From NCBI GenBank assembly GCA_035715365.1, contig DASTLB010000022.1, forward strand, positions 336,242 to 400,241: DNA of 64,000 nt. The letters are read 5' to 3'. Origin of the DNA: Kofleriaceae bacterium. GTDB taxonomy: Bacteria > Myxococcota_A > Polyangia > Haliangiales > Haliangiaceae. A program made the position numbers and the translations under genes. Position 1 is the stretch's first letter, and the number at the start of each line of letters is the position of its first letter. The notes under the pieces were generated by a model that did not search any database, was not told the origin of the DNA, and saw nothing but the letters and a program-made list of their open reading frames with translations. Below are positions 838 through 53,123 of the stretch, one piece after another.

Positions 838-1503
838 ATGCCGCTCCTGCGCCAGCTCGGAACCCTCGTCGGGAAAGGGGCCAAATCGGTCTCGCGCCAG
901 GGGATCTATTCGTTCCTCGAGGCGCAGCTCGCGCAGCTCCAGCCCGGTGAGCGCGTCCTCTCGATCGGAGCCGGCGGCGAGATCGGCACGCGCATCATCG
1001 CCGAGCGCGCGCGCGGCGTGAACATCCTCCAGCTCGACATCGACGACAAGCGCGGCGCGGACATCGTGGCGGATCTTTGCAAGTGGCGCGCGGACGAGCC
1101 GTTCGACGCGATCATCTGCTCCGAGGTGCTCGAGCACGTCTGGGCACCGCACCTCGCGGTCGAGAACATGTTCGCGAGCCTGCGCGAGGGCGGCAAGCTG
1201 ATCCTGACCGCGCCGTTCGTGCTGCCGATCCACGCCGCGCCGAACGACTTCTTTCGCTACACGCGGCACGGCCTCGAGGTCCTGCTGCGCGACTTCAAGC
1301 AGGTCACGATCGAGGATCGCAACTCGTGGGCGGAGTCGCTCGGCGTGCTCGCGGTGCGCATGGTGCGCAAGCGCAAGACGCGCGCGCTCGAGGCGACGGT
1401 CGTGCCGTTCGTCGCCGCCGGCTATCCGCTGCTGCGCGCGGTCGGCAAGCTGTTCCCGGCGAACGAGATGCCGACCGGCTACAACGTGATCGCGATCCGC
1501 TAG
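838..1503 (+). CDS. Class I SAM-dependent methyltransferase (Methyltransf_11/25-like)
   Basis: Motif I VLSIGAGGEIG, acidic loop LQLDID, and motif post-I/II DAIICSEVLEHV. Its stop overlaps the stop of the convergent 1500-2363 gene (CTAG). Confidence 0.8.
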   Translation: MPLLRQLGTLVGKGAKSVSRQGIYSFLEAQLAQLQPGERVLSIGAGGEIGTRIIAERARGVNILQLDIDDKRGADIVADLCKWRADEPFDAIICSEVLEHVWAPHLAVENMFASLREGGKLILTAPFVLPIHAAPNDFFRYTRHGLEVLLRDFKQVTIEDRNSWAESLGVLAVRMVRKRKTRALEATVVPFVAAGYPLLRAVGKLFPANEMPTGYNVIAIR

Positions 1504-2363
1504 GCGCCGTAGCCGTAGTAGCGATTGAGCGCGCCGCCGACGAGGTTGACGATCCGCTGATCGCGCTTCGGCATCTCGCGCCGCCACTTCTCGTCGAGCC
1601 GGATCGTCGAGTCCGTGCTCTTCGCCATCCGGTTGCCGCCGAGCCCGAGCCACGTGTGATCGCGGTAGCGCAGCATCTGCGGGTCGTACGCGAGCCCCAT
1701 CAGCGAGCAGATCTGCGCGAGCGTCGCCGCCGGATCCGTGACCAGGTCCTCGTACCGCACGCGCATCCAGCGGTCGCCGAACCGCGGCTGCAGCGCCATC
1801 GCGCCGGCGTTCGACTTCAGCCACTTCGACAGTCCGTAGCGCACGACCTTGTACTTCTTCGTGTACGAATGAACGATCCCGCGCGCATCGCGCACCAAGT
1901 GGACGACGCGAAGGTCGAACAACCCCGAGCGGTCCATGAGGTAGAGCTGGTGCCACGACTTCGACGCGTCGATGATCCACGGCTTGCCGGTCACCTGCGA
2001 CAGGCACTCGAGCAGCGCCGCGCGCGGCCGGGTCCACTCGGTCACGCGCTCGCGCGACCACCGCAGGAACGTCTTCACCGACGGGTGATAGAGGTCGAGG
2101 TCGGCGAAGCGCAGGTGCGTCCGCTGCTCGAAACAGCGTGCCGCCTCCTGCCACGCGGGCTCGGCGAGCACCGGGTCGTGATCGCGGATGCAGTCCTTGA
2201 GCGCCCCGAGCTCGCTGACCGCGACGCAGTCCGGATGTCCGTTCAACAACAGGCTGAGCAGCGTCGAGCCGCAGTGCCCCGCGCCGAGGATGAACAACAC
2301 GCGCTGCCGCTCGGGGCTGGTGACCACCGAGTGCTCGTACCACACGCGTCGAGAGGGGAGCAA
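1500..2363 (-). CDS. Sulfotransferase family protein (P-loop LGAGHCGSTLL; stand-alone Sulfotransfer_3-like)
   Basis: N-terminal 5'-PSB-like loop ILGAGHCGSTLLSLLL followed by RDxRG-type region LVRDARGIVHS. The start at 2363 is TTG; a GTG start (VWYEH...) about 18 nt downstream is an alternative. Confidence 0.7.
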   Translation of the reverse strand: MLPSRRVWYEHSVVTSPERQRVLFILGAGHCGSTLLSLLLNGHPDCVAVSELGALKDCIRDHDPVLAEPAWQEAARCFEQRTHLRFADLDLYHPSVKTFLRWSRERVTEWTRPRAALLECLSQVTGKPWIIDASKSWHQLYLMDRSGLFDLRVVHLVRDARGIVHSYTKKYKVVRYGLSKWLKSNAGAMALQPRFGDRWMRVRYEDLVTDPAATLAQICSLMGLAYDPQMLRYRDHTWLGLGGNRMAKSTDSTIRLDEKWRREMPKRDQRIVNLVGGALNRYYGYGA

Positions 2364-2365
2364 CG

Positions 2366-3775
2366 ATGCTAAGTTCGCCCGCGATGATCAGGTCGCTGTC
2401 GTCGGACGATGCGCCGAGCGAGATCGACACCGACGTGTGCGTGATCGGTTCGGGCGCCGCCGGCGTCGCGGTTGCCCGCGAATTTCTCGGAACCGGCACG
2501 CGCGTCACCGTGCTCGAGAGCGGCGGTCGCAAGCCGACGCCGTCGCCGGATCCGCTGTACGACCTGCAGACCTCGCACCTCCCGATCCCGACCGACTCGC
2601 GCGTGCGCTCGTTCGGCGGCACGACGACCGTGTGGTCCGGACGCTGGAAGCGCTTCGATCCGATCGACTTCGTGCCGCGCGACTGGGTGCCGCGCTCCGG
2701 CTGGCCGATCGCGTACGACGCGCTGACGCCGTACTACGAGCGCGGCGCGCGCGCGGCGAAGGTCGACGACCGGCCGAAGCCGGGCGATGTCCCCGAGCTG
2801 CTGCGGTCGTCGATCGTCGTGCCGACGGTGTTCCACACCTTGACCGAGGCCGAGCGTGACTTCGGGATCGCGACCGGGCCGCGGTTCGAGCGCGCGACCA
2901 ACGTCGAGGTGCTGCTCGACGCGCACGTCGTCGGCTACGACACCGCGAACCGCAGCGTGTCGCGCGTGCTCGTGCGCTCGGGCGCGAGGTCGATCGGCGT
3001 CCGCGCGAAGCTCGTCGTGATCGCGACCGGTGGCATCGAGAACGCGCGCCAGCTGCTGATCGCGAACGCCGGCAACGACCACGATCAGGTCGGCCGCTAC
3101 TACATGGATCACCCGAAGGCGAAGATCGGCGTGATCGAGACCTACGAGCCGATCGACACCTCGTCGTGGAAAGGCCTCGACGAGAGCGCGCCGGTCTGGG
3201 TCGGCTTCCGGCTCGCCGACGACATCCAGCGCGAGCGCCGCATCCTCAACAGCTATGCATTCCTGGCGCCCGCGTTCGAGCGCGATCTGCCGCGCCGCAT
3301 CCTGCGCCGGCTCGTCAAGCCGAAGATCTGCCGCGTGCTCGACGTCCGCAACTACCTCGAGCAAGAGCCCGATCCCGACAACCGCGTCTACCTCGGCGGC
3401 GACAGCGATCCGCTCGGCCTGCCGAAGGCGAAGGTCGCGTGGACGATCCGCGACCAGGACCGGCGCACGATCGTCGAGCTCCATCGCCTGCTCGCACGCG
3501 AGCTGCAGAAGAACAAGGTCGGCGAGCTCCACAGCCCGTTCCTCGACGGCCGCGAGCCGCCGCCGTTCCAGGATGCCTCGCACCACATGGGCACGACGCG
3601 CATGGGCACGGACCCTCGGACGTCGGTCGTCGACACCGAGTGCCGCGTCCACACCGTCGACAACCTGTTCGTCGCCGGCAGCTCGGTGTTCCCGACGAGC
3701 GGCTACGCGAACCCGACGGCCACGCTGGTCGCGCTCGCGATCCGGCTCGCCGATCACCTGAAGACCCGCCTATGA
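2366..3775 (+). CDS. GMC-family FAD-dependent oxidoreductase (glucose-methanol-choline type)
   Basis: N-terminal FAD fold DVCVIGSGAAGVAVAREF...VLESG, central ATGGIENARQLL, and C-terminal GMC signature HHMGTTRMG...VDNLFVAGSSVFPTSG. Confidence 0.85.
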   Translation: MLSSPAMIRSLSSDDAPSEIDTDVCVIGSGAAGVAVAREFLGTGTRVTVLESGGRKPTPSPDPLYDLQTSHLPIPTDSRVRSFGGTTTVWSGRWKRFDPIDFVPRDWVPRSGWPIAYDALTPYYERGARAAKVDDRPKPGDVPELLRSSIVVPTVFHTLTEAERDFGIATGPRFERATNVEVLLDAHVVGYDTANRSVSRVLVRSGARSIGVRAKLVVIATGGIENARQLLIANAGNDHDQVGRYYMDHPKAKIGVIETYEPIDTSSWKGLDESAPVWVGFRLADDIQRERRILNSYAFLAPAFERDLPRRILRRLVKPKICRVLDVRNYLEQEPDPDNRVYLGGDSDPLGLPKAKVAWTIRDQDRRTIVELHRLLARELQKNKVGELHSPFLDGREPPPFQDASHHMGTTRMGTDPRTSVVDTECRVHTVDNLFVAGSSVFPTSGYANPTATLVALAIRLADHLKTRL

Positions 3776-4788
3776 ACAACGTGCTCGTCATCGGCGCCGG
3801 CAAGCGCACGCTCGGCGCGGTGCTGCCCGCGCTGCACTGCATGCCGGATCGGTTCCGGGTCGCCGGCGTCGTCGCGCGCAGCGTCAAGCAGGTCTCGTAC
3901 GGCCTCGGCACCGTGACCACGCGCGACTCGCTCGACGGCATCGACTGGAAGGCGATCGACCTCGTCATCACCGCGGTCTCGATCAGCCAGGTGCCGCGGA
4001 TGCTCGCGAGCCTCGCGCGCCGCGACGTCGGCCACGCGGTGCTGCTGCACGACACGCCGGTGCTGCCGCCGTCGGGGCTGCCGGCCGCGCGCCACTTCGC
4101 CGCGTTTCGCCGCGCGTACATCTCCGAGGACAACATCGCGCTGCCGCCGCTGCTGCTCGCGAAGCAGCTGATCGACGACGGCGCGATCGGCCAGCTGAAG
4201 AAGATCTACTTCTTCCACAACGGCTACAAGCACCACGCGCTCGCGAGCCTCAAGCTCCTGACCGGCTCGACGATCGAGCGCATCGTCAGCCGCAAGTTCG
4301 CCGGCAAGCTGCGCCAGAAGACGATCGACTTCGCGAGCGGCGTCACCGCGCTGATGTACGAGCCGCGCGACTACGCCACCGGCCGGTTCCTGATCGAAGG
4401 CGACCGCGGCGCGATCGCGGACTACGACTACGCGAACGGCTCGGTGCGCCGCATCGGCTACGTCGTCGACGGCGACGTCTACCGCGGGCTGACGCTCGAC
4501 GGTGCGCCGGTGCCGCCGGCCGGCCTCGACGCCGACTACCTCGCGCGGATCGGCCCCGGGATCCCCGAGGCCTCGCCGATGAACACGATGAAGCTGCGCG
4601 GGCTGATGGATCTGATCGTCGGTGCGCTCGATGATCGGTCGCCGTTTCACTACACGCCCGAGGACGGCATCGCCGATCACCTCGCGATCCGGATCGTCGA
4701 TCGCGTCGGCTACGTGCCGGCGCAGCGCACGCTCGCGCGGCTCGTGCCGCTCGCGAAGCGCGTGCCGTTCGTGCAGCGCGCCCTATGA
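3772..4788 (+). CDS. Gfo/Idh/MocA-family NAD(P)-dependent oxidoreductase (sugar dehydrogenase-like)
   Basis: Start ATG at 3772 overlaps the GMC stop (ATGA). N-terminal Rossmann VLVIGAGKRTLGAVLPAL. The six-frame ORF 3166-4788 carries an R-rich spurious N-terminal extension. Confidence 0.7.
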   Translation: MNNVLVIGAGKRTLGAVLPALHCMPDRFRVAGVVARSVKQVSYGLGTVTTRDSLDGIDWKAIDLVITAVSISQVPRMLASLARRDVGHAVLLHDTPVLPPSGLPAARHFAAFRRAYISEDNIALPPLLLAKQLIDDGAIGQLKKIYFFHNGYKHHALASLKLLTGSTIERIVSRKFAGKLRQKTIDFASGVTALMYEPRDYATGRFLIEGDRGAIADYDYANGSVRRIGYVVDGDVYRGLTLDGAPVPPAGLDADYLARIGPGIPEASPMNTMKLRGLMDLIVGALDDRSPFHYTPEDGIADHLAIRIVDRVGYVPAQRTLARLVPLAKRVPFVQRAL

Positions 4789-5120
4789 ACGTCGACGAGC
4801 TCGTCACGCCGACCCTGGACCGGATGCGGTCCCGACGGAATCCGCTGATGCCGGACCGCACGTTCAAGGATCTGTTCGCCTTCATTCTGGGCCTGCTGGA
4901 AGGACTCCAGCTGACGCAACATGACGTTGCTAGCTCGCAACTCAATCGCTTCATCTGCGAGCTCGATTCGATCAAGTTTCCCCACAACTGGAAGCACGTC
5001 CTGTCTCGGCGGGCTGTCGCGGACAACGAAGCCGCGATTGCACAGTTCTTCTCGCTCTGGGAGAGCTATCGCGATACCCAGCAGGTGCCAGCCGTGCCAA
5101 GTCTGGACGACGCCGTCTAG
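4785..5120 (+). CDS. Hypothetical small protein (111 aa), coupled by ATGA overlap to the upstream oxidoreductase; markedly lower GC than neighbours
   Basis: ORF with ATG at 4785 overlapping the TGA of 3772-4788. Composition is AT-richer than the flanks. No recognisable motif. Confidence 0.35.
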   Translation: MNVDELVTPTLDRMRSRRNPLMPDRTFKDLFAFILGLLEGLQLTQHDVASSQLNRFICELDSIKFPHNWKHVLSRRAVADNEAAIAQFFSLWESYRDTQQVPAVPSLDDAV

Positions 5121-5485
5121 TCGGCCGAGATATTGCCCGCGAGCTGCCAGATCGGCCGGTAGCCGAAGTACACGGTGAACACGAGCGCCGCGACGATCGC
5201 GCCAATCGCCGCGAGGTAAATCCACAGCGGACCCGGTCGCTTCACGACGAGCCACGCGACCACGGCCGCACCGACGGTCGGCACGCCGATCAGCCACGGC
5301 GGGCGGATCGCGAAGATCGTCGCGTGCGAGATCTGCGCGTGCGGGCCCATCTCGCGATACATCGCCTCGAAGCCCGAGAACCACCACGACACGAGGCCGT
5401 GCACGGCGACGAGCAGCGCGAGCGCGCCGGTGAGCATGCCGCGGCCGAAGCCGGAGGTGTCGTCGGGTGGTGGCGGCGCCGTCAT
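5117..5485 (-). CDS. Small integral membrane protein (122 aa, about 3 TM helices), last gene of the minus-strand glycan operon
   Basis: C-terminal portion of six-frame ORF 5117-6256: MTAPPPPDDTSGFGRGMLTGALALLVAVHGLVSWWF...AAIGAIVAALVFTVYFGY. Start ATG at 5485-5483 overlaps the upstream stop (ATGA). Confidence 0.5.
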   Translation of the reverse strand: MTAPPPPDDTSGFGRGMLTGALALLVAVHGLVSWWFSGFEAMYREMGPHAQISHATIFAIRPPWLIGVPTVGAAVVAWLVVKRPGPLWIYLAAIGAIVAALVFTVYFGYRPIWQLAGNISAD

Positions 5486-6324
5486 CGCGGCGGCAGGTAC
5501 TCGGCGTAGAACGGCGACAGCGTCGACGCGATGCGCTCGTTCAGGTAGGCGATCTCGTCGGGCGACAGGTACTCGCGGAAGCCGCCGACCTTGCCCTTGC
5601 GCGTCTTGAACGACTCGGTGTCCGCGGCGTCTCCTGGCTTGAGGCGCGCGGCGGCGTCCTTCGCGGCCTGGGCCTCGAGCTTGCGCATGTTGTCGAATCG
5701 CGAGAACTCGACCGCGGCCTCGACGACCGCGCGCGGCGGGACGGTGCCAACGACGCGCAGGCAGCGCTCGACCTCGGTGACCGGATCCTTGTGGAGGTCC
5801 TCGTAGCGGACGAGCGTGAACGACCGCGGGATCGTGCGCGCCTCGGCCCACACGTTGTAGTAGGCGATGATCGTGTCGAGCGAGCCGACGTCGTGGCGCA
5901 GGAACTCGCCGGGCGTGCCGTGGAAGCGATCGCGACGGCGCGACGCCTGGAAGTAGTAGGAGATCATCGTGTCGCGCGGATCGCGGACGAGGAAGATGAT
6001 GTCCTTGCCGGCGTAGTGCGTCTTGTCGCGCTCGACCTCGTCGGGGCGCTTGAGCTGCGGATTGTCGTCGTGGGTGACGCGCATCCGCGGCAGCTGCTTC
6101 GCGTGCTGGTAGAAGCGCGCGAGGTCCATCGGGTCGATGTCGAGGTGGAGCTCGTCGGCGAGCGCCTTGCCCATCATCAGGCGCAGCCAGGTGCGGCCGG
6201 TCTTCGGGAACGAGAGTAGATACAGCGACGTGCGCTGGTGCGTGTACCAGCTCCACGCGCGCTTGCCGACGTCGGTCTCGCGGACGTACTTGCGCAGGTT
6301 CGACGGCAGTGCGGTGAGGTTCAT
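5482..6324 (-). CDS. Sulfotransferase (PAPS-dependent; P-loop SFPKTGRTWL, 3'-PB motif VRDPRDTMISYYF)
   Basis: Six-frame ORF 5482-6915 has an R-rich spurious N-terminus. The true start MNLTALP... (ATG 6324-6322) overlaps the TGA of the upstream dehydrogenase (ATGA). It shows sulfotransferase 5'-PSB and 3'-PB signatures. Confidence 0.8.
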   Translation of the reverse strand: MNLTALPSNLRKYVRETDVGKRAWSWYTHQRTSLYLLSFPKTGRTWLRLMMGKALADELHLDIDPMDLARFYQHAKQLPRMRVTHDDNPQLKRPDEVERDKTHYAGKDIIFLVRDPRDTMISYYFQASRRRDRFHGTPGEFLRHDVGSLDTIIAYYNVWAEARTIPRSFTLVRYEDLHKDPVTEVERCLRVVGTVPPRAVVEAAVEFSRFDNMRKLEAQAAKDAAARLKPGDAADTESFKTRKGKVGGFREYLSPDEIAYLNERIASTLSPFYAEYLPPR

Positions 6325-7313
6325 GCGTTCACTCGATTCCATGCCGGCTCGCCGCGCAGGATGCGGAGCGCTTCCTCGGCGGCCTTCTTGCGCATCTCGG
6401 CCATCGCCTCGAGCGAGTAGAACGCGGCGTGCGGCGTGATCACGAGCCGGTCCTGCGCCTCGGGGTGGTTCGCGAGCCACTTCGCGAGCAGCGGGTCGTC
6501 TGGATCGAGCGGCTCGGACGGCAGCACGTCGAAGCCGCCGGATGCGACGACGCCGGCGTCGAACGCCTCGCGGAATGCCGGCCAGTCGACGACCGGGCCG
6601 CGCGCGGTGTTGATCAGGACCATGCCGCGCTTCGCGGCCGCGAAGAACCGCTTGCCGATCAGGCCGCGCGTCTCGGACGTGAGCGGCGTGTGCAGGCTGA
6701 CGACGTCGCAGCTCGCCGCGAGCTCGTCGAGCGAGTGGTAGCGCGCGAGGCCGAGCGCCTTGTCCCAGCCCGCCGGGCGGTACGGATCGTAGAACCCGAC
6801 CTGCATGCCGAACGCCTTCGCGCGCAGCGCGGTCGCTGCGCCGATCCGCCCGAGCCCGACGATGCCGAGCTTCTTCTCGGTCAGCCGGAACGTGTGCGTC
6901 ACGCCCCACCGCCACTGCGCGGGGCCCGAGCGCACGGCGCGATCGTGACCCGACAGGCCGCGCGCGAGCGCGAGCAGCAGCGCCATGGCGTGATCGGCGA
7001 CGTCGTGCGTCCCGTAGTCGGGGACGTTCGCGACGACGATGTCACGCTTGCGGGCGGCCTCGAGATCGACGTTGTCGAACCCGACGCCGACCCGCACGAT
7101 CGCCTTGCACTTCGGCATCGCGGCGATCGTCGCGGCGTCCCACTTGAGGTCGTGCCACGCGAGGATCGCGTCCGCGTCCTCGATCTTCCCGGCGAGCTCG
7201 GCGTTCGTCTTCGCCTGCAGCAGCGTGACGCGCGCGAGCGTGCCGAACACGGCTTCTTCGATGTCGGCGGGCGGTGCGAGCCGGTCGGGAACGATGACGT
7301 GCCATTCAGCCAT
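6321..7313 (-). CDS. D-isomer-specific 2-hydroxyacid dehydrogenase family (glycerate/phosphoglycerate/4-phosphoerythronate dehydrogenase-like)
   Basis: NAD-binding GIVGLGRIGAATALRAKAFGMQV, catalytic region LINTARGPVVD, and HAAF near the C-terminus. ATG at 7313 lies in an 8-nt overlap with the FAH gene stop. Confidence 0.85.
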   Translation of the reverse strand: MAEWHVIVPDRLAPPADIEEAVFGTLARVTLLQAKTNAELAGKIEDADAILAWHDLKWDAATIAAMPKCKAIVRVGVGFDNVDLEAARKRDIVVANVPDYGTHDVADHAMALLLALARGLSGHDRAVRSGPAQWRWGVTHTFRLTEKKLGIVGLGRIGAATALRAKAFGMQVGFYDPYRPAGWDKALGLARYHSLDELAASCDVVSLHTPLTSETRGLIGKRFFAAAKRGMVLINTARGPVVDWPAFREAFDAGVVASGGFDVLPSEPLDPDDPLLAKWLANHPEAQDRLVITPHAAFYSLEAMAEMRKKAAEEALRILRGEPAWNRVNA

Positions 7314-8163
7314 CGCGAGACTCCTCTGCCACGTGATTGACGAGCGTGCCGATGCCCTCGATGACCATCTCGATTCGATCGCCGGGCTTCACGATCGACT
7401 GCCGCGCGCCGACCGGGGTGCCGGTCAGGATCGCGTCGCCGGGCTCGAGCGTCATGATCCGCGACGCGAGCGCGACCGCCTCGTAGGTGTCGAGCACGCG
7501 GTCGCCGGTCATCGCGTCCTGCGTCGTGCGATCGTTGATCTTCGTCGACACGCGCACGTTCGTGTCGTCGAGGCCGGTCACGAGCTCGGGGCCGAGCGGG
7601 CAGAAGCCGTCGAGGCTCTTGCTGCGCGCGAGGTGCCAGTCGCGGCCGAGGATGTTGAGCGCGGTGACGTCGTTACCGATCGTGATCCCGGCGACCACGT
7701 CGCGCGCGGCCGCGGCATCGCGCAGGTGGCGCGCACGCCGGCCGATGATCGCGGTGACCTCGACCTCGATCCACACCTCGGAAGCGGGCGGGACGTGGAT
7801 CGTGCCGCCGGGATGCGTGACGCAGTTCGGGCCCTTCAGGAACACGAGCGGCTCGAACCCGACGTCTGTGTAGTGCGCCTCGCTCTTCTTCGCGAGCGCC
7901 GCGGGGTCACCGAACAGCGACTTGTAGTTGTACGCGAGCGCGAGGATCTTCGTCGGCTCCGCCGGCGCGAGCAGCTCGACGTCCGCGAACCGGACGGTCT
8001 CGCCGGTGCGTTGCGTGCTCACCCACGGCGCCGCCGCGATCACGTGGATCGTGTCGGCCTCGCGAATGCCCCACGCCGGGCCGGCCGGAGGCGAAAGCGT
8101 CCGGCCACCCGGCACATCCGGACGATGACCGCGCGCGCCGCGAAATCGGACGTAGCGCGTCAC
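7306..8163 (-). CDS. Fumarylacetoacetate hydrolase (FAH) family protein (2-keto-acid hydratase/decarboxylase-type)
   Basis: FAH-fold motifs KILALAYNYKS, GFEPLVFLKGPN and TGTPVGA...PGDRIEMVIEGIG. GTG start at 8163 overlaps the upstream TGA (GTGA). Confidence 0.8.
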   Translation of the reverse strand: MTRYVRFRGARGHRPDVPGGRTLSPPAGPAWGIREADTIHVIAAAPWVSTQRTGETVRFADVELLAPAEPTKILALAYNYKSLFGDPAALAKKSEAHYTDVGFEPLVFLKGPNCVTHPGGTIHVPPASEVWIEVEVTAIIGRRARHLRDAAAARDVVAGITIGNDVTALNILGRDWHLARSKSLDGFCPLGPELVTGLDDTNVRVSTKINDRTTQDAMTGDRVLDTYEAVALASRIMTLEPGDAILTGTPVGARQSIVKPGDRIEMVIEGIGTLVNHVAEESRDG

Positions 8164-8897
8164 TGCTTGTCGTACGGCGTCGACGACTCGGTGAAGCCGG
8201 CGTTACGCAGGAAGTACTCGACCATCGGGAACTGCCACTCGAAGTCGACGTCGCAGCCGCCTTCCTGGTGCAGCGGGTGCACGGTCTTGCCGATCCAGCG
8301 GAACGGGATCTCGCCGCGCGAGTAGTCGAAGCAGTGCGGGCGCAGCACGAACACCGAGCAGTCGACGAAGTACGTGTCGCCCTGGCTGTCGCGATCGCAG
8401 GTCGCGCCCGCGAACGTCTCGGGATCGATGAACGGCTTGACGAGCCCGCCCTCGATCCGGCGAGCGCGCAGCGCGCTGAACATGTTGTACTTGCTGACCG
8501 AGACGGCGGAGTCGTACTCCGGGTGCTCGCGCAGCCACTTGACGCCCTCGTCGATGATGCCGGGCGTGATCGTCGCGCCGTTCGCGAATAACAGCACGAC
8601 GAACTCGATGGGTTCTTTCGCCTGGGCCACGATCTGCTCGTAGCCGTGCTTGAACGCGTCCTCGGCGAGCGCCTCGTTCGTCGCGAGGAACGCCGGGCGC
8701 TCGATGTACGTGCAACCCTGTTGCAACGCGATCTCGCGGATCGCCTCGCTGTCCGTCGAGACGAACACGTGGCTCACGGCCTTCGCATGCTTCGCCGCGA
8801 GGATCGGATACAGCGCGAGCGGACGTCCGAGGATCGGACGCACGTTCTTGTCCTTCACGCGGCTGCCTTTACGACCGATGATCAAAGTCGGGATCAC
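8160..8897 (-). CDS. Acylneuraminate/3-deoxy-manno-octulosonate-type cytidylyltransferase (CTP_transf_3, NeuA/KdsB family): CMP-sugar-acid synthetase
   Basis: Real start is GTG at 8897 (VIPTLIIGRKGSRVKDKNVRPILGRPLALYPI = the IPARxxSxRxPxKNxxxLxGKPLI signature) with an AGGAG RBS 7 nt upstream. The longer track ORF 8160-9137 has a spurious R-rich N-terminus. The GTG overlaps the HAD gene stop (GTGA). Confidence 0.75.
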   Translation of the reverse strand: MIPTLIIGRKGSRVKDKNVRPILGRPLALYPILAAKHAKAVSHVFVSTDSEAIREIALQQGCTYIERPAFLATNEALAEDAFKHGYEQIVAQAKEPIEFVVLLFANGATITPGIIDEGVKWLREHPEYDSAVSVSKYNMFSALRARRIEGGLVKPFIDPETFAGATCDRDSQGDTYFVDCSVFVLRPHCFDYSRGEIPFRWIGKTVHPLHQEGGCDVDFEWQFPMVEYFLRNAGFTESSTPYDKQ

Positions 8898-9652
8898 GAT
8901 GCAATCTCCTCTGCGTGGCGTGCGAGCGCCCGCTCCAGATCGGTGAGCTGAAGGCACGGTAACCCGCCCGCCTTCGCGTTGTGAACGTCGTCGGCGCCGA
9001 GATAGCCCCACAGCGCCAGGTGCGCGGAAATCCCGCGCTTCAGCGCCGGGAGTGCGTGGTGCGCGTAGTCGTCGAGGAAGAACACCGCGCTCGCCGGCAG
9101 CCCTCGCGCCTCGGCGGCCTCGACGAGGATCTGCCACTTCTCCTTCGTCCCCGAGCGCGGCAGCAGCGTCGGCGTGATGCCCGCGAAGTGGCCGAGGATC
9201 CGCTGGATCGAGCGATCGTCGCGCGTCGACAGGATCACGGCGTCACCGCCGAGCTTGCGAAACGCCTGCACGGCGTCGGCGAACGGCTCGATGACGGAAC
9301 ACCAGGTCGCGACGTCCTCGGACAGCTCGCCGCGTGTCGCGAAGTAGAGGTCGGTGAACGAGGCGAGCTCGGCCTTGCGCGCGTTCGCGATCGCGAGGAA
9401 CTGCTCGGTCGTCGACGGTAACTGCTCCGTCGCCAGCAGGTCGAGCAGCACCGCGTACTGCCACGGCGGACCGACCCAGTGGCGGTGCGCGAGGAACGCG
9501 GTCGCGAGCTCCGGCGTCGGCGACGCGACATCACGCCAGCGCTCGGCCGCGGGACCCGGGCGCTTCCTCGACGCCGCGTACGCGACCGCGAGGCACTCGC
9601 GCGCGGTGTCGAACAGCACGCCGTCGAAGTCGAACACGTAGAGCGGCTTCAC
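8894..9652 (-). CDS. HAD-superfamily phosphatase (DxDGV motif; KdsC / sugar-acid-phosphate phosphatase-like)
   Basis: N-terminal FDFDGVLFDT (HAD motif I), later ILSTRD and FFLDDYAHH (motifs II-IV). GTG start. Confidence 0.75.
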   Translation of the reverse strand: MKPLYVFDFDGVLFDTARECLAVAYAASRKRPGPAAERWRDVASPTPELATAFLAHRHWVGPPWQYAVLLDLLATEQLPSTTEQFLAIANARKAELASFTDLYFATRGELSEDVATWCSVIEPFADAVQAFRKLGGDAVILSTRDDRSIQRILGHFAGITPTLLPRSGTKEKWQILVEAAEARGLPASAVFFLDDYAHHALPALKRGISAHLALWGYLGADDVHNAKAGGLPCLQLTDLERALARHAEEIAS

Positions 9653-9659
9653 CGGACCC

Positions 9660-10697
9660 TCAGCGGAACAGGTCGACCGCGTCGGCGACGCGCGACGAGT
9701 AACCCCACTCGTTGTCGTACCAGAGCACGACCTTGAGCTGGCGGCCGCGGTTCAGCATCAGCCACCGCGTGTCGATGATGCAGCTGTGCTCGTCCTTCAG
9801 GTAGTCGACCGAGATCAGCGGCTCGTCGGTGATCCGCACGACGTGGCGGCCCTGCTGCGAGGCCTCGAGCGCGTGTAGCGCCTCGAGCACGGTCTGCTCG
9901 GTCGCGTCGCGCTCGAGGTGCAGCGTCATGTCGCCGCTCGACACGCATGGCGTCGGCACGCGATAGGACATGCACTTGAGGCGCCCGGCGAGCGCCGGCA
10001 GGATGCGCTCGCACGCGCTGACGACCGTCGTCGGCTTCGGGATCAGCGCGCCGACCGACGACCGGCCGAGCGGATAGTGCGAGTACGTCGCGCCCGGGTA
10101 CGCCTGCGAGCGCGCCGGACCGTCCATCAGGTTCTGGTACGACAGCCACGGGTGCAGCGTCGTGATGAAGCCGAACTCGACGCCGAACCGCTCGTCGAGC
10201 GTCTTCAGCACGGGCGCGGCGGCGATCGCGTCGCAGATGCTCGTCGACACGACGCGATGCTTCTTCGCGTCGAAACCCTGCTCGGTCGCACCGAACACGA
10301 GCGTGTAGTCCGCGCTCGGCGCGGCGTGCGTGATCAGGACCGGCGCGATCGAATCCGCGACCTTGCGCGCGTGCTTCTCGTTCAACGACGTGCCGGTCGC
10401 CTCGATCACGACGTCGACCTCGCCGTGCTGCCAGTCGACCGCGGCGATGTCGTTGACGTGCGTGACGCGGATCGACGCGTCGCCGACGTGCAGGCCCTCG
10501 TACGTCGCATCGACCTTCTGCGCGAGCCGGCCGTACGTGGTGTCGTACTTCAGCAGGTACGCGAGGTTCTCCTTGTCGACGTTCAGATCGTTGATGTGGA
10601 CGATCCGGTGCTTGCCGCTCTCGAGGAGGATCCGCGTGACCGCGCGGCCGATGCGGCCAAAGCCGTTGATCCCGATTCGCAAGGCGCGTGTGCTCAT
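9660..10697 (-). CDS. Glyceraldehyde-3-phosphate / erythrose-4-phosphate dehydrogenase family protein (divergent catalytic region)
   Basis: N-terminal RIGINGFGRIGR (GAPDH NAD-binding signature). The catalytic-Cys region reads STSICDAIAAAP rather than canonical ASCTTNCLAP. ATG at 10697 with a GGAGG RBS overlaps the upstream stop (ATGA). The track ORF 9660-11930 is a read-through artefact. Confidence 0.8.
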   Translation of the reverse strand: MSTRALRIGINGFGRIGRAVTRILLESGKHRIVHINDLNVDKENLAYLLKYDTTYGRLAQKVDATYEGLHVGDASIRVTHVNDIAAVDWQHGEVDVVIEATGTSLNEKHARKVADSIAPVLITHAAPSADYTLVFGATEQGFDAKKHRVVSTSICDAIAAAPVLKTLDERFGVEFGFITTLHPWLSYQNLMDGPARSQAYPGATYSHYPLGRSSVGALIPKPTTVVSACERILPALAGRLKCMSYRVPTPCVSSGDMTLHLERDATEQTVLEALHALEASQQGRHVVRITDEPLISVDYLKDEHSCIIDTRWLMLNRGRQLKVVLWYDNEWGYSSRVADAVDLFR

Positions 10698-11857
10698 GAT
10701 GACCTCCGGCTGCGTAGCTCGAGCAGCGTGCTGGCAATCCGATCCGCCGCCTGACCGCGATGGGCCAGGTGGCGCTCCAGAAACGAGTCGGCGCGCGGGC
10801 GCTCTCCCGCGACGAGCGCGGGCAATTCGCGCGCGAGGTTGTCGAGCGTCAGCCCGACGGCGGCGCCGCGCTCGACGTACTCGAAGATGTGGCCGTACTT
10901 CGGCAGCGCGAGTACCCCGAGCGGCAGCCCGAACGCGAGCGCCTCGAGGCCGACGGTCGACGCGAGCACGACCGCGGCCTGCCCCATCGCGAGCACCTCG
11001 AACAGCGGCTCGCTGCCGTCGAGCACCGTGACGTTTGCCTGCGGCGTGTGCTTCGCGGTGTTGCGAAACCCGGCGACGCTCTCGCGCGGGTGCAACTTGG
11101 CGACGATCGGCCGGCCTGCGAGCACCGGCGCCGCGCGCTCGAGGAACGCGTGGAACAGGTCGTACTTCTCGGCGGTCGTGCAGAAGCCCTGATCGTCGAT
11201 CGTGTTCGACAGGAACAGCAGCGGTCGCTCGGACAGGCCGAGCTTTGCTTGCAGCGCTTCGCCGCGCGCGCGCCACTGGGCGGGATCGACGTCGTCCCAG
11301 CGCGGCGTCCCGGTGATCACGACGTTCGCGCCGACCTTGCGAAAGTGCTCGGCGCTCGCCTCGCCCCACACGCACACCGCCGACGCGCCGCCGCCGCCGT
11401 ACGGCGCGCCCGCCGCCTGCTCGGTCGGCAGCGGAAACCGGATCCCCTCCTGGAGCAGCGCGAACGGCACCTCGGCGCGGCGCAGCTGCTCGGCGAGCTG
11501 GCCGTACGGGAACGCGGCATCGTTCGGCAGCACGACGACGTCGCTGCCGCGCAACAGCCAGCGCAAGCGCGGCGCGAGCACCGTGTGCCACGCGAGCTTC
11601 TGCGCCGTCGACCGCGCCGCGGCGCCGCCCGCGCCCTCGAGCCCGGCACCGACCGACGGATCCTTGCGGATCCAGCGCGGCAGCGCCTGCTTCACCGTCG
11701 TGTGCGGCACGAGCTTCGGCAGATCCGGCGTCTGGAAGCCGCGCAGCTCCGCCAGGGACACGAACCGCGTCGGCTCGCCCTGCGCCGCGAGCTTCTTCGC
11801 GACGGGCACCATCATGTCGACGTGGTGCCGCGGGTTCGTGAACACGAACGTCACCAT
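10694..11857 (-). CDS. Capsule-polysaccharide-biosynthesis-like transferase (KpsS/KpsC- or TagF-like, about 387 aa)
   Basis: Size and architecture resemble Capsule_synth/Glyphos_transf proteins: N-terminal Rossmann-like block, central LLFLSNTIDDQGF, C-terminal HPRES. Recognition is by general family resemblance only. The 7-nt ATGGTGA overlap links it to the upstream GT4. Confidence 0.45.
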   Translation of the reverse strand: MVTFVFTNPRHHVDMMVPVAKKLAAQGEPTRFVSLAELRGFQTPDLPKLVPHTTVKQALPRWIRKDPSVGAGLEGAGGAAARSTAQKLAWHTVLAPRLRWLLRGSDVVVLPNDAAFPYGQLAEQLRRAEVPFALLQEGIRFPLPTEQAAGAPYGGGGASAVCVWGEASAEHFRKVGANVVITGTPRWDDVDPAQWRARGEALQAKLGLSERPLLFLSNTIDDQGFCTTAEKYDLFHAFLERAAPVLAGRPIVAKLHPRESVAGFRNTAKHTPQANVTVLDGSEPLFEVLAMGQAAVVLASTVGLEALAFGLPLGVLALPKYGHIFEYVERGAAVGLTLDNLARELPALVAGERPRADSFLERHLAHRGQAADRIASTLLELRSRRSS

Positions 11858-12969
11858 GCCGCCGCTGCCTCGCCGAGCATCGCGCCCTGGTACTTCGCCA
11901 TCGCGGCGACAGTCGTGAACCGCTCGGCACCGCGGCGGGCGGCCTCGCTCATCCGGGCGTGGAGCTGCGCGTCGTCGAGCAAGCGCGCCGCGCGGTCAGC
12001 GAGCACGTGCGGATCGCCGACCGGCACGAGGAAGCCGGATACACCGTTCTCGATCACCTCGCGCGGCCCGAAGTCGGCATCGGTCGACACGACCGGCACG
12101 CCGCACGACATCGCCTGGATGATCCCGCCCGGCAGGCCCTCGGCGCGGCTCGCGTGGATCAGCAACTTCGAGCGCGCGAGGTACTTGAACGGGTTCGGAT
12201 CGAAGCCGTGGAACACGACGTCGTCGGCGAGGCCGAGCTGCTGCGCCTGCGCTTCGAGCTCGCGGTGCAGCGGGCCCTCGCCGAGCACGAACAGCCGGAC
12301 GCGCCGGCTCGCGCGCACGATCGCGAACGCGCGCAACATCGTGGGATAGTCCTTGATCGCGACGAGGCGGCCGATCGCGAGCAGCACCGGCACGTCGCCT
12401 CCGAACCACGGGTGGTCGACCGGCTCGGCGGCCTGGCGGCGCGTCTCGTCGTCGACGAGTGGGTTGTAGACGACGTGGACCTTCGTCTTCGCGAGGCCGA
12501 GCGCGCTGACGAGATCGTCGGCGACGCCGCGCGATACCGCGGTGACGACATCGGCGAGCCGGTAGGTCGCCATCTTCGCCGGCAACTCGATCGCCATGCG
12601 CGTCGGGCTACGATCGACGCGGCGGAGCGCGCTGCGCTCGGACACGACGAGCCGCGCCTTCGAGCGCGCGAGCACGTGCGCCATCGCCGCGACGATGTTC
12701 GCGCCGCCCTGCATCGCGAACACGACGTCGGGCCGTTCCTGGCGCAGCACGCGCGCGAGCGCCGGTACCGAGACCGCGAGCCGGCGCGTGCCGAGCTCGA
12801 TCGTCCGGACGTCCGGCGGGATCTCGCCGACGAACGAGCCCTCGCGGCGCAGCAGCGCGATCGACGGCTCGAACTTCGTGCGATCGAGGTGGCGCAGCAG
12901 CGTGATCGTCACGCGATCCGCGCCGCCCGACGCCAGCGTCGGCGTGAAGAACAGGACGCGTGTCGTCAC
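11851..12969 (-). CDS. Glycosyltransferase family 4 (GT-B, retaining)
   Basis: C-terminal EX7E-type motif [24 protein letters not shown]-terminal [21 protein letters not shown] start at 12969 overlaps the APS kinase stop (GTGA); the track start at 13014 would overlap cysC by 48 nt. Confidence 0.85.
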
Positions 12970-13496
12970 GCCAGCTCCAGCCGCTCCAGCGTGGCGATGA
13001 TCTCGCGCTCGCACTCGGCGAGTGGCTTCAGATCGGTGCGGACCTCGAGCGTCGGCGCCGGCGGCGGCTCGTACGGATCCGAGATCCCGGTGAAGCTCGC
13101 GATCTCGCCGGCCTGGGCCTTCTTGTAGAGGCCCTTCACGTCGCGCGCGATCACGGTCTCGAGCGGCGCGTTCACGAACACCTCGACGAACGGGTGCCCG
13201 GCGGCCTCGCTCGCGGCCTTGAGCTCGGCGCGCGTGTCGGCGTACGGCGAGATCGCCGCGACGAACACGAGCACGCCGTGTTTCGCGAGCAGCCGGCCGA
13301 CGTACGCGATCCGGCGGACGTTGGTGTCGCGATCGGCGCGCGAGAATCCGAGGCCCGCGGTCAGGAACATGCGGACCTCGTCGCCGTCGAGCAGCTCGAT
13401 CGGGCGCCGCGTCGCGAGGCGCTGCGAGACCGCGGTCGCGAGCGTCGACTTGCCCGCGCCCGACAGGCCGGTGAGCCAGACGATCCCGCCGCGCAT
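12966..13496 (-). CDS. cysC: Adenylyl-sulfate kinase (APS kinase; makes PAPS)
   Basis: Walker [20 protein letters not shown], and [16 protein letters not shown], a textbook CysC. ATG at 13496 (the track's 13499 is a GTG) overlaps the upstream TGA by 1 nt. Confidence 0.9.
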
Positions 13497-14704
13497 CACG
13501 CCGCTGCCTTCGGTGCGATCACCGGACGCACCACGGGCTTGCGCGCCGCAGCGGCGAGCTTGTCTTCTTCACGCAACGAGACGACGACGCCGAGCAAGAC
13601 CCACATGAGTGCAAACCGTAATCCTTGATGGGTCATGCCGTAGGCGAAGGCCGGGCCGACGACCATCCACGTCTGGAGAGGCGTTCGTTTCATGACGAAC
13701 CACATGAAGATGCCGAACAGCACCGTGCCGACGATGCCGTAGCAGAAGAACATCGTGCCGAGCGACGAGTGCAGCTCGTGCGAGCCGATCACCGTCGTGT
13801 CCTTGAACCGGCGATACGCGCCCTCGCCCGAGCCGAGCACCCAGTACTCGGGGTTGTTGACGATGCGGTCGTAGCCGCGCTCCTCGAAGAAGTCGTGCGA
13901 CTCGTCGCGATCGATGCGCTCCTGTGCGCGCTCGAGCGCGGCGGAGAACGGGTTCGGCGTCACGAGCAGGACGACGAACACGAGCGCCGCGACGATCATC
14001 GTGCGCAGCCGTCCGATCAGGATCGCGATCGCGAGCATCGCGATGCTGGCGAGCGCGGCCTTCGACGCCGACAGCAGCGCGAGGTAGCTCGCCATCGTCA
14101 CGCCCGCGAGCACCGCGACCGTCGACATCTTCGTGCGGCGCTGGCCGAGCAGCAGGATGCACGCGCACAGCAAACCGTAGTAGCCGAGCTGGTTCGGCTC
14201 GTTGAACGCGTTCGTCGAGCGCATGCGGCTCGAGCCACCGAGGCTGACGAGGATCTGCAGCCCGAGCGACACGAGGATCACGCGCGTCGTCAGCCACAGG
14301 AACTTCAGGCCGTATCGCCGGTGCAGCAGCAGGATCGTGAAGAACAGCAGCAGGTTGAAGATGTAGAACAGCGGGCTGAGGATGAAGCTGTCCTTGAGAT
14401 CGACCGAGATCTTGCCGACCCACACCGTCCACAGCAGGTTCGCGATCACCGCGTAGAGCACGAACCGCGCGAGCGCCATCAGCGTCCGGCGCGTGTCGGT
14501 CATCAGCTTGCCGTCCCACGACGCGAAGATCGACGGCATCAGCACGACGAGCAGCCACACCGCGGGCTGCGGCAGCCCGTTCGGCACGACGTAGAACGGG
14601 AAGAAGATGATGAAGAGGCTCCACGCGAGCAGCCGCGGATCGCGACAGATCGCGATCGCCTCGGCCATCGTGTGACCGAGCGAGGGAGGAACCCGGAACT
14701 TCAT
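13496..14704 (-). CDS. Wzy-like polysaccharide polymerase / O-antigen-ligase-family membrane protein (first gene of the operon)
   Basis: About 10-12 predicted TM helices and a large periplasmic loop ...[20 protein letters not shown]... typical of Wzy_C proteins. Conspicuously AT-richer (TTT/TTC codons) than neighbours. Confidence 0.6.
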
Positions 14705-17800: not shown

Positions 17801-18178
17801 CTCGGTGATGCCGTTGACGAGCGTCGTCGCGACCGGGCCGTCGATCGACGTGTCACCCATGGTGATCGTGCCGGTGCGCAGCGCCATCGCGCCGCCGGTG
17901 ATCTTCGTCGTGCCGTCGTAGTGATACGGCGTGACCTCGACGAAGCCCTCGGACACCTTCACGTCGTGCGTCAGGTAGCCCGCGCGATACGTGCCGCTGT
18001 CGTTGCGGAACGCGGTGATCGCCTTCTGCGCGAGCAGCTGGAGATCCCGCTCGGGGCCCGCCACCAGCGTACCGGTCTCCGTCGGCGCCGGCTCCGTCGG
18101 CTGGGTTGGCTTATCGGAGCCCTGGCAAGCCGCAAGTCCGGCTACCAGCGCCAACTGGAAGAAGCGTGTGCTGTTCAT
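14867..18178 (-). CDS. Large secreted lipoprotein with about 14 tandem 50-aa repeats ([FYL]xVxWxDxRxxxxDIFGxR...) and a C-terminal Cys-rich domain of Myxococcus type
   Basis: Lipoprotein signal MNSTRFFQLALVAGLAAC|QG (start ATG 18178; the track start 18208 is upstream). The repeats are visible by eye. The C-terminal CSTDAQCGTGGFCVDSRCCESACGG...C-x-C pattern resembles the myxobacterial Cys-rich repeat. Confidence 0.7.
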   Translation of the reverse strand: MNSTRFFQLALVAGLAACQGSDKPTQPTEPAPTETGTLVAGPERDLQLLAQKAITAFRNDSGTYRAGYLTHDVKVSEGFVEVTPYHYDGTTKITGGAMALRTGTITMGDTSIDGPVATTLVNGITETTRGAAIETITNREDGIEQAWRFDSAPLADGDLVVSVSVVGQTFVADTATGLHFKSPTALGFRYSDATWVDAKGTTWPIDARYVDGQIVMTVPEDIVKSSTFPAVLDPTVTAEVAVDAPVNGGTGTGANQAAIASDGTNYLVVWSDRRLSTDADIFGTRISPSGTILDADGILIGSGPGIQTHPTVTFAGGTYVVAWEDFKVTDGTESDIVAARVSSAGAVTQLGTIAGTTTSETEPALGSAGGTGLLTWTVGAANIQGAIFNGTTFGAPFNVAASANVEIQSAVAGAPGTGFLVAWSEGAQTDANLRGSIVTTGGSVGAAFDISAAANRQFDPTVAFNGTNFMVAWSNNNGGLNIFGTRVTTAGAVLDTRVENTLTVGGVPVTTAADSQEQPKIACTAATCLVVWRERRNFATASFDIFGQRLNPDFTLAGGELQIATANQAQQAPAVATDGSNFFSVWHDSRDARIQTVFGSAVSAAGAVGANLRLVTGNNREFNPAVGHAGNTHVVAWTDSRSNDSTDVMFVRFNGLTKLDANALTLNGSANAQFAPAISSSGGTQMFAIWSDTRSGVDADLFMTKINTDGSVTSAAGTPLAQAAGDQLTPAVAVSNPGGTAAGAALVVWQDRRGTSFDIMGALLDASGNIIKNDIVICDAAGDQNRPAVAFDTNNQQWVVVWSDGRVNTDFDIFGARIDATGTVLDANGVLVSGGATGSQFTPSLAFTGGIFLAVWQDRRSDGEGDIFGARIQAGASLNVLDPSGFGIGGTTGAQSSPTVAQNVGSFLVAWQDGRNAATTGSDIFGIGIGTTGAVGEPEFVISAGPENETTPALGDSSAAKVSRIAYVKERPDLQTVRVVSRQITVSATTGSLCSTDAQCGTGGFCVDSRCCESACGGNAIDCQSCKSTLTGQPDGVCAPTLLGKVCRPYADTFCDRQEKCDGVNITCPDDIGRRQGIACTTSVGGTGVCPPDDVTGAPHVCQ

Positions 18179-18271
18179 GGATGCTCCCATGCAAGATCGA
18201 ATGCTCATGATACTCGCTTCCCGGTCGTCTGGAGTCGACCATACCCCGTTGTTATCCGACTGCTTTGTGGT

Positions 18272-25746: not shown

Positions 25747-25780
25747 CGCCGGTCATAGTAGCCGCGATCGATCGCCGCGA

Positions 25781-39012: not shown

Positions 39013-39015
39013 GAT

Positions 39016-44790: not shown

Positions 44791-44845
44791 ATCGACGAGC
44801 TTAGGCGGAGCGCCGGCTCGGACGTGAAGAAACGACGCGCGGGAA

Positions 44846-52331: not shown

Positions 52332-53119
<788 letters not shown>

Positions 53120-53123
<4 letters not shown>

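Follow-up and report, generated by a model that had tools for sequence, protein, structure and literature searches.

Kdo and the sialic, pseudaminic and legionaminic acids are key cytidine monophosphate (CMP)-activated determinants of bacterial surfaces, and they are predicted from genomes through NeuB or KdsA. In the CMP-Kdo pathway (KdsD-KdsA-KdsC-KdsB) and the CMP-nonulosonate pathways (NeuB, PseI or LegI with NeuA, PseF or LegF), a protein of the CTP_transf_3 fold activates a sugar acid, which is then passed to a surface glycan; in some cases the acid is first formed with a phosphate group that a HAD enzyme removes. A 64,000-nucleotide stretch of contig DASTLB010000022.1 from a Kofleriaceae bacterium (hereafter the window; G+C content about 70%) carries a five-gene cassette with the same end logic. 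It encodes a GAPDH-like dehydrogenase, a HAD phosphatase, a CTP_transf_3 cytidylyltransferase, an FAH-fold enzyme and a D-2-hydroxyacid dehydrogenase. Like the known systems, the cassette includes a HAD protein, is set in glycan or flagellin-glycosylation islands, and has a cytidylyltransferase whose model superposes on CMP-Neu5Ac, CMP-Pse, CMP-Kdn and CMP-Kdo synthetases. In contrast to them, it has two dehydrogenases and an FAH or HpcH protein instead of the phosphoenolpyruvate (PEP)-dependent NeuB or KdsA, and its HAD is of type IA, not KdsC. The balance of the evidence tips slightly towards the five genes forming a synthase-independent cassette for a CMP-activated 2-oxo sugar acid.

Two other pathways, Epd-PdxB of pyridoxal phosphate synthesis in E. 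coli and GAPDH-SerA of serine synthesis, also run from a GAPDH-family enzyme to a D-2-hydroxyacid dehydrogenase and take a hydroxy-aldehyde to a 2-oxo acid. The cassette differs from both: its proteins score well below the Epd, PdxB and SerA cut-offs, the phosphate-site residues are replaced, and it lies in a glycan locus with a cytidylyltransferase, where the product would not be meant for an aminotransferase. HpcH/HpaI/GarL/RhmA aldolases and FAH enzymes (HpcE, the oxaloacetate decarboxylases FAHD1/Cg1458, 2,4-diketo-3-deoxy-L-rhamnonate hydrolase) are established alternatives in sugar-acid catabolism. Here the two groups alternate in a single slot, in a biosynthetic context, and the FAH proteins are without the NYADH His. 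In 2017 de Berardinis reportedly described hydroxypyruvate-dependent aldol synthesis in vitro by HpcH-family aldolases. This is the chemistry that we propose for the third step of the cassette; it is known as a promiscuous biocatalytic activity, with no physiological pathway assigned.

The five genes lie on the minus strand. They are the GAPDH-like dehydrogenase at 9660-10697 (345 aa; Gp_dh_N 2e-30, Gp_dh_C 1.3e-28), the HAD phosphatase at 8894-9652 (252 aa; PF00702, 5.4e-07), the cytidylyltransferase at 8160-8897 (245 aa; CTP_transf_3, 8.6e-12, 45.8 bits against a cut-off of 22.6), the FAH-fold enzyme at 7306-8163 (285 aa; FAA_hydrolase 6e-45, with Rv2993c-like_N) and the 2-hydroxyacid dehydrogenase at 6321-7313 (330 aa; 2-Hacid_dh, and 2-Hacid_dh_C at 1.6e-47). 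Pfam confirmed all five of the families that a preliminary description, made from the letters of the window, had placed here. They belong to a minus-strand run of genes from 14704 to about 5117 in which start and stop codons overlap or nearly abut, the overlaps being continuous from a Wzy-like gene to a sulfotransferase gene. None of the five proteins reaches any NCBIfam equivalog cut-off. Among the open reading frames (ORFs) with high third-position G+C in the whole 64 kb, Pfam found no gene for NeuB, a KdsA/DAHP-synthase-type protein or an HpcH aldolase. Sequences of NeuB and HpcH from sister loci, used as tblastn queries, likewise had no match in the window.

The cassette occurs in Myxococcota, Bdellovibrionota, Fibrobacterota, Elusimicrobiota, Campylobacterota and Bacteroidota, always in surface-glycan or flagellar/flagellin-glycosylation loci (the neighbourhood statistics cover about 18 independent loci). 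All five genes were found in several metagenome-assembled genomes (MAGs) of Myxococcota (L004, L005, L006, L008, L010), together with an adjacent gene that we call G7 and often with DegT and CapD genes. The five-gene form was also found in Oligoflexia/Bacteriovoracaceae (L003/L009, L007, L011), Fibrobacterota (L002), Elusimicrobia (L017) and two metagenome contigs (L001, L019). An Arcobacter-like genome (L013) has the cassette in a flagellin-glycosylation island with Maf/MptE-like transferases. The Bacteroidota form (L015/L016) lacks both FAH and aldolase, and three sulfotransferases lie around it (3784-5755; 16114-16968). No sister locus has a PEP-dependent synthase (NeuB/KdsA) within the cassette. 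This conservation in at least six phyla, within glycan and flagellin loci, bears out the view that the five genes are one functional unit, and genome mining based on NeuB or KdsA would miss the group of donors that such a synthase-less cassette provides.

Several of the cassettes outside Myxococcota carry additional genes. An SDR epimerase/dehydratase lies within or is attached to some of them (L001, 6552-8486; L002, 6515-8478; L003, 12549-13490), a methyltransferase of about 333 aa is also inserted in L001 and L002, and L017 has a radical-SAM enzyme and a CmcI-type methyltransferase. These additions suggest tailored (methylated or epimerised) versions of the product.

At four independent loci (L021, L022, L023 and the P0213 contig), the FAH slot is occupied by an HpcH/HpaI-family protein. 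Their bit scores are 152-161 against HpaI, 139-151 against GarL and 124 against RhmA; judged by sequence, all are true class II pyruvate aldolases, of the 2-keto-3-deoxy-acid type. The aldolase-type cassette of L021 directly follows flagellin and hook-associated genes, and that of L022 adjoins an MptE/WaaZ-like transferase and an ABC-transporter O-antigen system. In the tree of GAPDH-like proteins the FAH and aldolase types are interleaved, L023 being sister to L013 and P0213 sister to L019. The 2-hydroxyacid dehydrogenase is orthologous across the two types (51% identity between the window and L021). Such repeated non-orthologous displacement points to a common function. Both the FAH and HpcH folds act through a C3 enolate of a 2-oxo acid stabilised by a divalent metal, and three reactions build on such enolisation: aldol addition, epimerisation at C3 and the decarboxylation of oxaloacetate. 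In a biosynthetic cassette with an aldehyde dehydrogenase, a dehydrogenase that forms a 2-oxo acid and a CMP-ulosonate-synthetase fold, C-C bond formation is the most economical of these, and the FAH enzyme probably carries out this enolate step, so that a synthase function is likely present. The earlier statement that the module has no ulosonate synthase holds by homology, none having been found, but probably not by function, given the HpaI/GarL-type aldolase in the FAH slot at four loci.

Two other functions were considered for this slot and rejected. Catabolic cleavage, by an aldolase with an aldehyde dehydrogenase or by a diketo-hydrolase as in L-rhamnose catabolism, does not agree with the biosynthetic setting or with a GAPDH-like gene that accompanies both the FAH and the aldolase. 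Oxaloacetate decarboxylation, as the activity common to FAH and HpcH proteins, would produce pyruvate without purpose in a glycan cassette.

The FAH-fold enzyme of the window is nearest to HpcE/HpaG decarboxylase-isomerases and Rv2993c-like structures, and not to the hydratases with which it had been grouped. It scores 123.7 bits on HpaG (cut-off 276.4), 87.8 on L-rhamnonate diketo hydrolase (500) and 15.4 on MhpD hydratase (350). The E-x-E and D motifs of the metal-binding type, which mark the FAH superfamily, are conserved in the cassette proteins. They read NYK(S/G)L in place of the NYADH of human FAHD1, whose His we take to be part of the hydrolase dyad, so a hydrolase role seems unlikely.

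The GAPDH-like protein scores 246.5 bits on the type I GAPDH model TIGR01534 (cut-off 367.2), and 221.9 and 222.5 bits on Epd models (TIGR01532; cut-offs 530.55 and 539). Its segment STSICDAIAAAP aligns residue for residue with SNASCTTNSLAP of Thermus GAPDH (1vc2), and the divergent active site reported before is thus present. Loss of the Cys/His pair, which the preliminary description had raised as a possibility, was not found: mapped on Thermus GAPDH, both Cys149 and His176 are kept, the latter within TTLHPW. Features of the NAD site (GxGxxG and an N-D motif) are retained and WYDNEWGYS is present, as are Arg231 and one Arg of the 195 region; a 10-residue insertion follows the D-G-P segment. 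In GAPDH, the Pi site is formed by Ser148, Thr150 and Thr208/Gly209 and the Ps site by Thr179 and Arg231. The protein of the window carries S148I, T150D, T179L and G209T, so that, going by residue roles in the GAPDH literature, both phosphate sites are altered throughout the clade.

Among 117 homologues (43-100% identity), S-I-C-D-A...P and T-T-L-H-P-W-L-x-Y-Q-N-L-x-D-G-P are invariant or nearly so, and the catalytic Cys and His are invariant. In a neighbour-joining tree this S-I-C-D clade is monophyletic with respect to housekeeping GAPDHs, which read SNASCTTNCLAP, and its signature is confined to cassette-type loci. A metagenome scan keyed on generic GAPDH peptides (WYDNEWG, INGFGRIGR) returned housekeeping GAPDHs at 79 of 80 loci, the single clade member being L023. 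As a GAPDH clade the S-I-C-D proteins are uncharacterised, and the Cys-Asp pair of their active site is invariant. They would be non-phosphorylating dehydrogenases that possibly act on an unphosphorylated aldehyde, and the Asp beside the Cys would activate water or another nucleophile.

In L020 (9001-15073), an S-I-C-D gene occurs without FAH or 2-hydroxyacid dehydrogenase. The genes downstream encode a glycerate kinase, an SDR protein, an NTP_transf_3 protein whose best match is inositol-1-phosphate cytidylyltransferase, a DHQ-synthase/Fe-ADH-like protein, a glyoxalase-fold protein and a PHP phosphatase. Adjacency to a glycerate kinase and an NTP transferase suggests that the S-I-C-D product is glycerate-like and unphosphorylated. 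Together with the altered phosphate sites, the kinase neighbour favours an unphosphorylated glycerate-level product over 4-phosphoerythronate.

In the cytidylyltransferase, the CTP_transf_3 match spans the N-terminal half only, and NeuA sequences from the PDB align to the N-terminal 150 residues only. KdsB models give at most 24.9 bits (cut-offs at least 193) and PseF gives 65.6 against 205.7; so far below the KdsB and PseF equivalog cut-offs, the protein is not an ordinary KdsB, NeuA or PseF. When its AlphaFold2 model (pLDDT 86) was compared with the PDB by Foldseek, the top 38 matches were all CMP-Neu5Ac, CMP-Pse, CMP-Kdn or CMP-Kdo synthetases, over the full length and with TM scores of 0.6-0.76. 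The G-R-x-x-S...K-N loop and G-x-D-x-D are invariant in the family. Judged by the modelled fold, we propose the reaction CTP + 2-ulosonic acid to CMP-ulosonate + pyrophosphate. To our knowledge, every characterised enzyme of the CTP_transf_3 fold acts on a cyclic 2-keto sugar acid; the product should therefore be able to cyclise and should have at least five carbons.

Among 1.84 billion representative proteins, the cytidylyltransferase family comprised 68 clusters (50% identity) at E<=1e-30 and 462 at E<=1e-10, some of the close homologues being labelled Omnitrophica and Solimonas by source. The protein of the window itself is 100% identical to a hypothetical protein on a 620-kb contig of a Kofleriaceae MAG. 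Searching genome contigs with the cytidylyltransferase alone gave nine close relatives, all from MAGs, and none of the nine belongs to a cultured organism of known glycan structure. The enzymes of the cassettes form three groups; scores between these groups are only about 35-85 bits, not higher than those against NeuB-associated paralogues. Two constant dehydrogenases, orthologous in all cassettes, with divergent cytidylyltransferases would fit a constant three-carbon donor and variable acceptors.

The HAD protein matches only PF00702 and, faintly, TIGR01509 (HAD-IA v3); no KdsC model matched it, and no sequence match was found in the PDB. An insert of about 110 aa separates motifs I and II, as in capped HAD-I enzymes, and the cassette HADs conserve the motif I DFDGV and motif IV DD of the superfamily. 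The KdsC-like label given before does not apply: the protein has no KdsC/YrbI match and is of the capped HAD-IA type instead of the capless tetrameric HAD-IIIA type. Its gene adjoins the GAPDH-like gene in most loci. From these sequence features, we propose that it is a capped HAD-IA-type phosphatase that dephosphorylates a pathway intermediate.

The 2-hydroxyacid dehydrogenase scores 238.6 bits on PGDH (TIGR01327; cut-off 454), 197.1 on glyoxylate reductase, also below cut-off, and 111.8 on PdxB (434). It is thus nearer to PGDH and glyoxylate reductase than to PdxB, with which it had been compared, and its best PDB matches are M. tuberculosis PGDH and CtBP.

We infer the substrates, products, step directions and FAH-fold aldolase activity as follows. 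The GAPDH-like enzyme with the HAD would take glyceraldehyde 3-phosphate or glyceraldehyde to D-glycerate (or 3-phosphoglycerate), the thioacyl-enzyme being hydrolysed and not phosphorolysed. The PGDH-like dehydrogenase would convert glycerate or 3-phosphoglycerate to hydroxypyruvate or its phosphate, and the phosphatase may act at either point. The FAH-fold enzyme, or the HpcH/HpaI aldolase in the sister cassettes, would then add the C3 enolate of an Mg2+-bound 2-oxo acid to an aldehyde. The product would be a 3,4-dihydroxy-2-oxo acid able to cyclise; hydroxypyruvate and glyceraldehyde, for example, would give a hex-2-ulosonic acid. Like this proposed step, HpcH-family aldolases use hydroxypyruvate as nucleophile in vitro with glyceraldehyde, lactaldehyde or erythrose and form 3,4-dihydroxy-2-oxo acids (PMC7610986). 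The CTP_transf_3 enzyme would couple the anomeric hydroxyl to CMP, and a neighbouring GT-B transferase would place the sugar on a sulfated surface polysaccharide.

As a compromise between its general and its specific parts, this explanation as a whole falls a little short of an even chance. The complete sequence from triose through glycerate, hydroxypyruvate and aldol to CMP-ulosonate is tentative, and we would not expect it to prove right in every step. Slightly less doubtful is the broader proposal of a PEP-independent route in which an FAH or class II aldolase joins hydroxypyruvate to an aldehyde and yields 3-hydroxy-2-ulosonic (Ko-like) or ulosaric acids undescribed in glycans. If true, this route would bring a new class of bacterial surface and flagellin sugars, the first physiological role for hydroxypyruvate aldolases and the first aldolase function for the FAH fold. 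The cassette offers a natural setting for hydroxypyruvate/pyruvate aldolase chemistry so far known from biocatalysis only, and supplies concrete enzymes for the discovery of a new nucleotide sugar.

Several points weigh against this explanation. We know of no precedent for aldol addition by an FAH-fold enzyme, and C3 epimerisation or decarboxylation would also explain the common enolate chemistry. The HAD gene is missing from three of the four aldolase-type cassettes, and the Bacteroidota cassette manages with neither FAH nor aldolase. 3-Phosphoglycerate is abundant, so a dedicated GAPDH-like step from glyceraldehyde 3-phosphate is not obviously needed; free glyceraldehyde is an uncommon metabolite. 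Thermodynamics disfavours the oxidation of a 2-hydroxy acid with NAD+, and the dehydrogenase may run reductively. The divergence of the cytidylyltransferases could be due simply to displacement by a non-orthologous gene. Finally, all instances of the cassette come from MAGs or metagenomes.

The best placed of the alternatives, which we nevertheless regard as unlikely, is a linear oxidation. The GAPDH-like enzyme would act on erythrose 4-phosphate or another aldose phosphate, of a pentose or hexose, and make the aldonate phosphate. The 2-hydroxyacid dehydrogenase would turn this into the 2-keto-aldonate phosphate, and after dephosphorylation by the HAD the acid would be joined to CMP, with the FAH or aldolase serving only as a C3 epimerase or tautomerase. 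The enzyme pairs Epd/PdxB and GAPDH/SerA, and KguD, are established precedents, the Epd and PdxB models do match, albeit below cut-off, and the Bacteroidota cassette works without FAH or aldolase. A second synthase-less cassette beside the first in L013 (4329-9368) and L022 (11549-17101) also reads naturally in this way. That of L013 encodes an SIS isomerase (GmhA-sized), a Gfo/Idh/MocA protein, a 2-hydroxyacid dehydrogenase, an IMPase phosphatase, a CTP_transf_3 protein and an MptE-like transferase; that of L022 encodes a Gfo/Idh/MocA protein, a methyltransferase, a 2-hydroxyacid dehydrogenase, a HAD, a PMT_2-like membrane protein and the start of a CTP_transf_3 protein, with no SIS protein listed. 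This second cassette appears to encode a linear oxidative pathway that starts with a ketose phosphate and ends in a further CMP-activated 2-keto acid.

For the cassette of the window, the linear route meets several objections. A C4 product could not cyclise and would have no anomeric hydroxyl, both phosphate sites of the GAPDH-like protein are altered, and its gene neighbours a glycerate kinase in L020. The repeated recruitment of HpaI/GarL-type aldolases poorly fits a mere epimerase role, and a constant substrate predicts conserved cytidylyltransferases where divergent ones are observed. The preliminary description had pointed to an Epd-to-PdxB route, the product of which would be a C4 2-oxo acid. 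Such an acid could presumably not form the cyclic hemiketal of characterised CTP_transf_3 substrates, and with the changed phosphate sites this route becomes less likely.

The proposed use of hydroxypyruvate as aldol donor has a variant with pyruvate as donor, which we consider improbable. Hydroxypyruvate, made by the two dehydrogenases and the HAD, would tautomerise to tartronate semialdehyde and joined to pyruvate in the GarL reaction to give 2-keto-3-deoxy-glucarate or -galactarate, a C6 3-deoxy-2-ulosaric acid and small Dha analogue, which is then coupled to CMP. The variant uses every enzyme, its product can cyclise, the sister aldolases score nearly as well on GarL (139-151) as on HpaI, and a glycerate kinase and a hydroxypyruvate reductase-type enzyme together mark the glycerate/tartronate semialdehyde node. 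Set against this, a fixed product again predicts conserved cytidylyltransferases, contrary to observation, such a sugar is not known in glycans, and the need for the GAPDH-like step is equally doubtful.

No more probable is a nonulosonate-like pathway, which would draw in the genes beside the cassette in Myxococcota. PglF/CapD and DegT would make a 4-amino-6-deoxy-hexosamine nucleotide, the GAPDH-like/HAD pair would install an N-glyceroyl group, G7 would act like NeuC/LegG, the FAH would replace NeuB and a C9 acid would be activated. In such a scheme the GAPDH-like enzyme would use Asp150 to position the nucleophile and pass its 3-phosphoglyceroyl thioester to the amine, after which the HAD would leave N-glyceroyl. 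The adjacency of G7, DegT and CapD in Myxococcota speaks for it, and the genetics of N-glyceroyl nonulosonic acids are unknown (PMC5378307). G7, DegT and CapD are, however, absent near cassettes outside Myxococcota (e.g. L001, L002, L013, L021), aminolysis by a GAPDH-type enzyme is without precedent and the 2-hydroxyacid dehydrogenase is left without a role.

G7 itself (10694-11857, minus strand; 387 aa) is next to the cassette in every Myxococcota instance. Structure searches gave a generic GT-B fold nearest to NeuC/LegG, UDP-GlcNAc 2-epimerases and TagF, and profile comparison with NeuC was insignificant. On Capsule_synth (PF05159) it scores 17.5 bits against a cut-off of 20, over residues 233-321 only, and the Capsule_synth-like label first given to this protein is not upheld. 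G7 is a candidate for the transferase that uses the CMP-activated product, but could instead be a NeuC/LegG-like NDP-sugar hydrolase. In L013 and L022, the transferases that adjoin the cassette resemble MptE/Maf or, faintly, WaaZ-Kdo. BLAST among unannotated flanking proteins of 400-650 aa across phyla found no common transferase, except the MptE-like one of L013 and L022.

Very improbable as product is a simple hydroxy acid in nucleotide-activated form, of CDP- or CMP-glycerate type, for decoration with phosphoglycerate or glycerate. Like the proposed product, that of CpgD (CTP:phosphoglycerate cytidylyltransferase) of Caulobacter is a cytidine-activated envelope donor built on a three-carbon hydroxy acid, and CDP-glycerate is a real metabolite (PMC12275187). 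The gene set of L020, where genes for a glycerate kinase and NTP_transf_3 accompany the GAPDH-like gene, could be a CDP-glycerate-type donor pathway. CpgD differs from the enzyme of the window in family, being described as a nucleotidyltransferase compared with TagD; CpgD uses a phosphate ester and has no dehydrogenase/FAH/aldolase cassette. The enzyme of the window has the CMP-ulosonate-synthetase fold, not one of the CpgD/TagD type, the cassette phosphatase conflicts with a phosphorylated substrate, and there would be no need for the 2-hydroxyacid dehydrogenase or for an FAH or aldolase.

The chance that the cytidylyltransferase is an ordinary KdsB or NeuA among unrelated metabolic neighbours is close to nil, since, even though a synthase could lie beyond the 64-kb window on the 620-kb source contig, the protein falls far below the KdsB, PseF and NeuA cut-offs, the five-gene synteny extends across phyla, the S-I-C-D signature occurs only in such loci and the genes are translationally coupled.

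We found no description of the cassette in the full-text literature, the search coverage of which excludes most subscription journals, and neither the SugarBase preprint nor the Geobacillus flagellin-island paper mentions it. The cassette is apparently unstudied. The claim of a new nucleotide-activated acid pathway is partly supported, in that no description was found and the unit is conserved; the linear C4 route attached to it is less likely.

The remaining genes of the operon are also on the minus strand. Upstream of G7 are a Wzy-like polytopic membrane protein (13496-14704), an APS kinase (12966-13499; APS_kinase 3.1e-54) and a GT4 glycosyltransferase (11851-12969; Glycos_transf_1 1.3e-35), all three genes having overlapping start/stop codons. 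Downstream of the cassette, a sulfotransferase gene (5482-6342; Sulfotransfer_1 6.1e-20) overlaps with its start the stop of the 2-hydroxyacid dehydrogenase gene (ATGA at 6321-6324), and a membrane ORF of about 121 aa (5117 to about 5485) is the last gene. The sulfotransferase probably serves in glycan tailoring. The polysaccharide locus has a second sulfotransferase (1500-2363, minus strand) and its own APS kinase, and given these genes the glycan product is probably sulfated. In other genomes, an APS kinase lies near the cassette in L012, and the giant glycosyltransferase of L021 includes a domain of sulfotransferase type.

At the head of the polysaccharide locus, on the same strand, are a PglF/CapD-type membrane 4,6-dehydratase (19400-21313; Polysacc_synt_2 6.4e-122) and a DegT aminotransferase (18272-19390; DegT 4.1e-96). 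In L004 and L005, DegT and CapD are directly upstream of G7 and the cassette, and homologues of the Wzy-like membrane protein follow the cassette. Between DegT and the Wzy-like gene, the window has a minus-strand gene for a secreted protein of 1113 aa (14867-18208) without a Pfam match. The N-terminus of this protein resembles a signal peptide, the C-terminus is rich in Cys, and there are long Thr/Ala/Gly-rich repeats.

Downstream of a GMC oxidoreductase gene (2366-3775) come a plus-strand gene of about 336 aa (about 3780-4788; no Pfam match) and a 111-aa ORF (4785-5120). These genes, called within 2366-5485 from codon-position GC, converge on the minus-strand membrane ORF, and the long ORFs on the opposite strand in this interval are artefacts of high G+C. 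Genes for two eukaryotic-type Ser/Thr protein kinases and a PP2C phosphatase (23401-25752, minus; 43000-45048, minus; 52290-53123, plus) are typical of myxobacterial genomes and apparently bear no relation to the cassette. Between 30001 and 40000 the AT skew is strongly negative (-0.19 to -0.36), and this coincides with two very large minus-strand genes for TPR-repeat proteins (32828-36838; 36502-39015).

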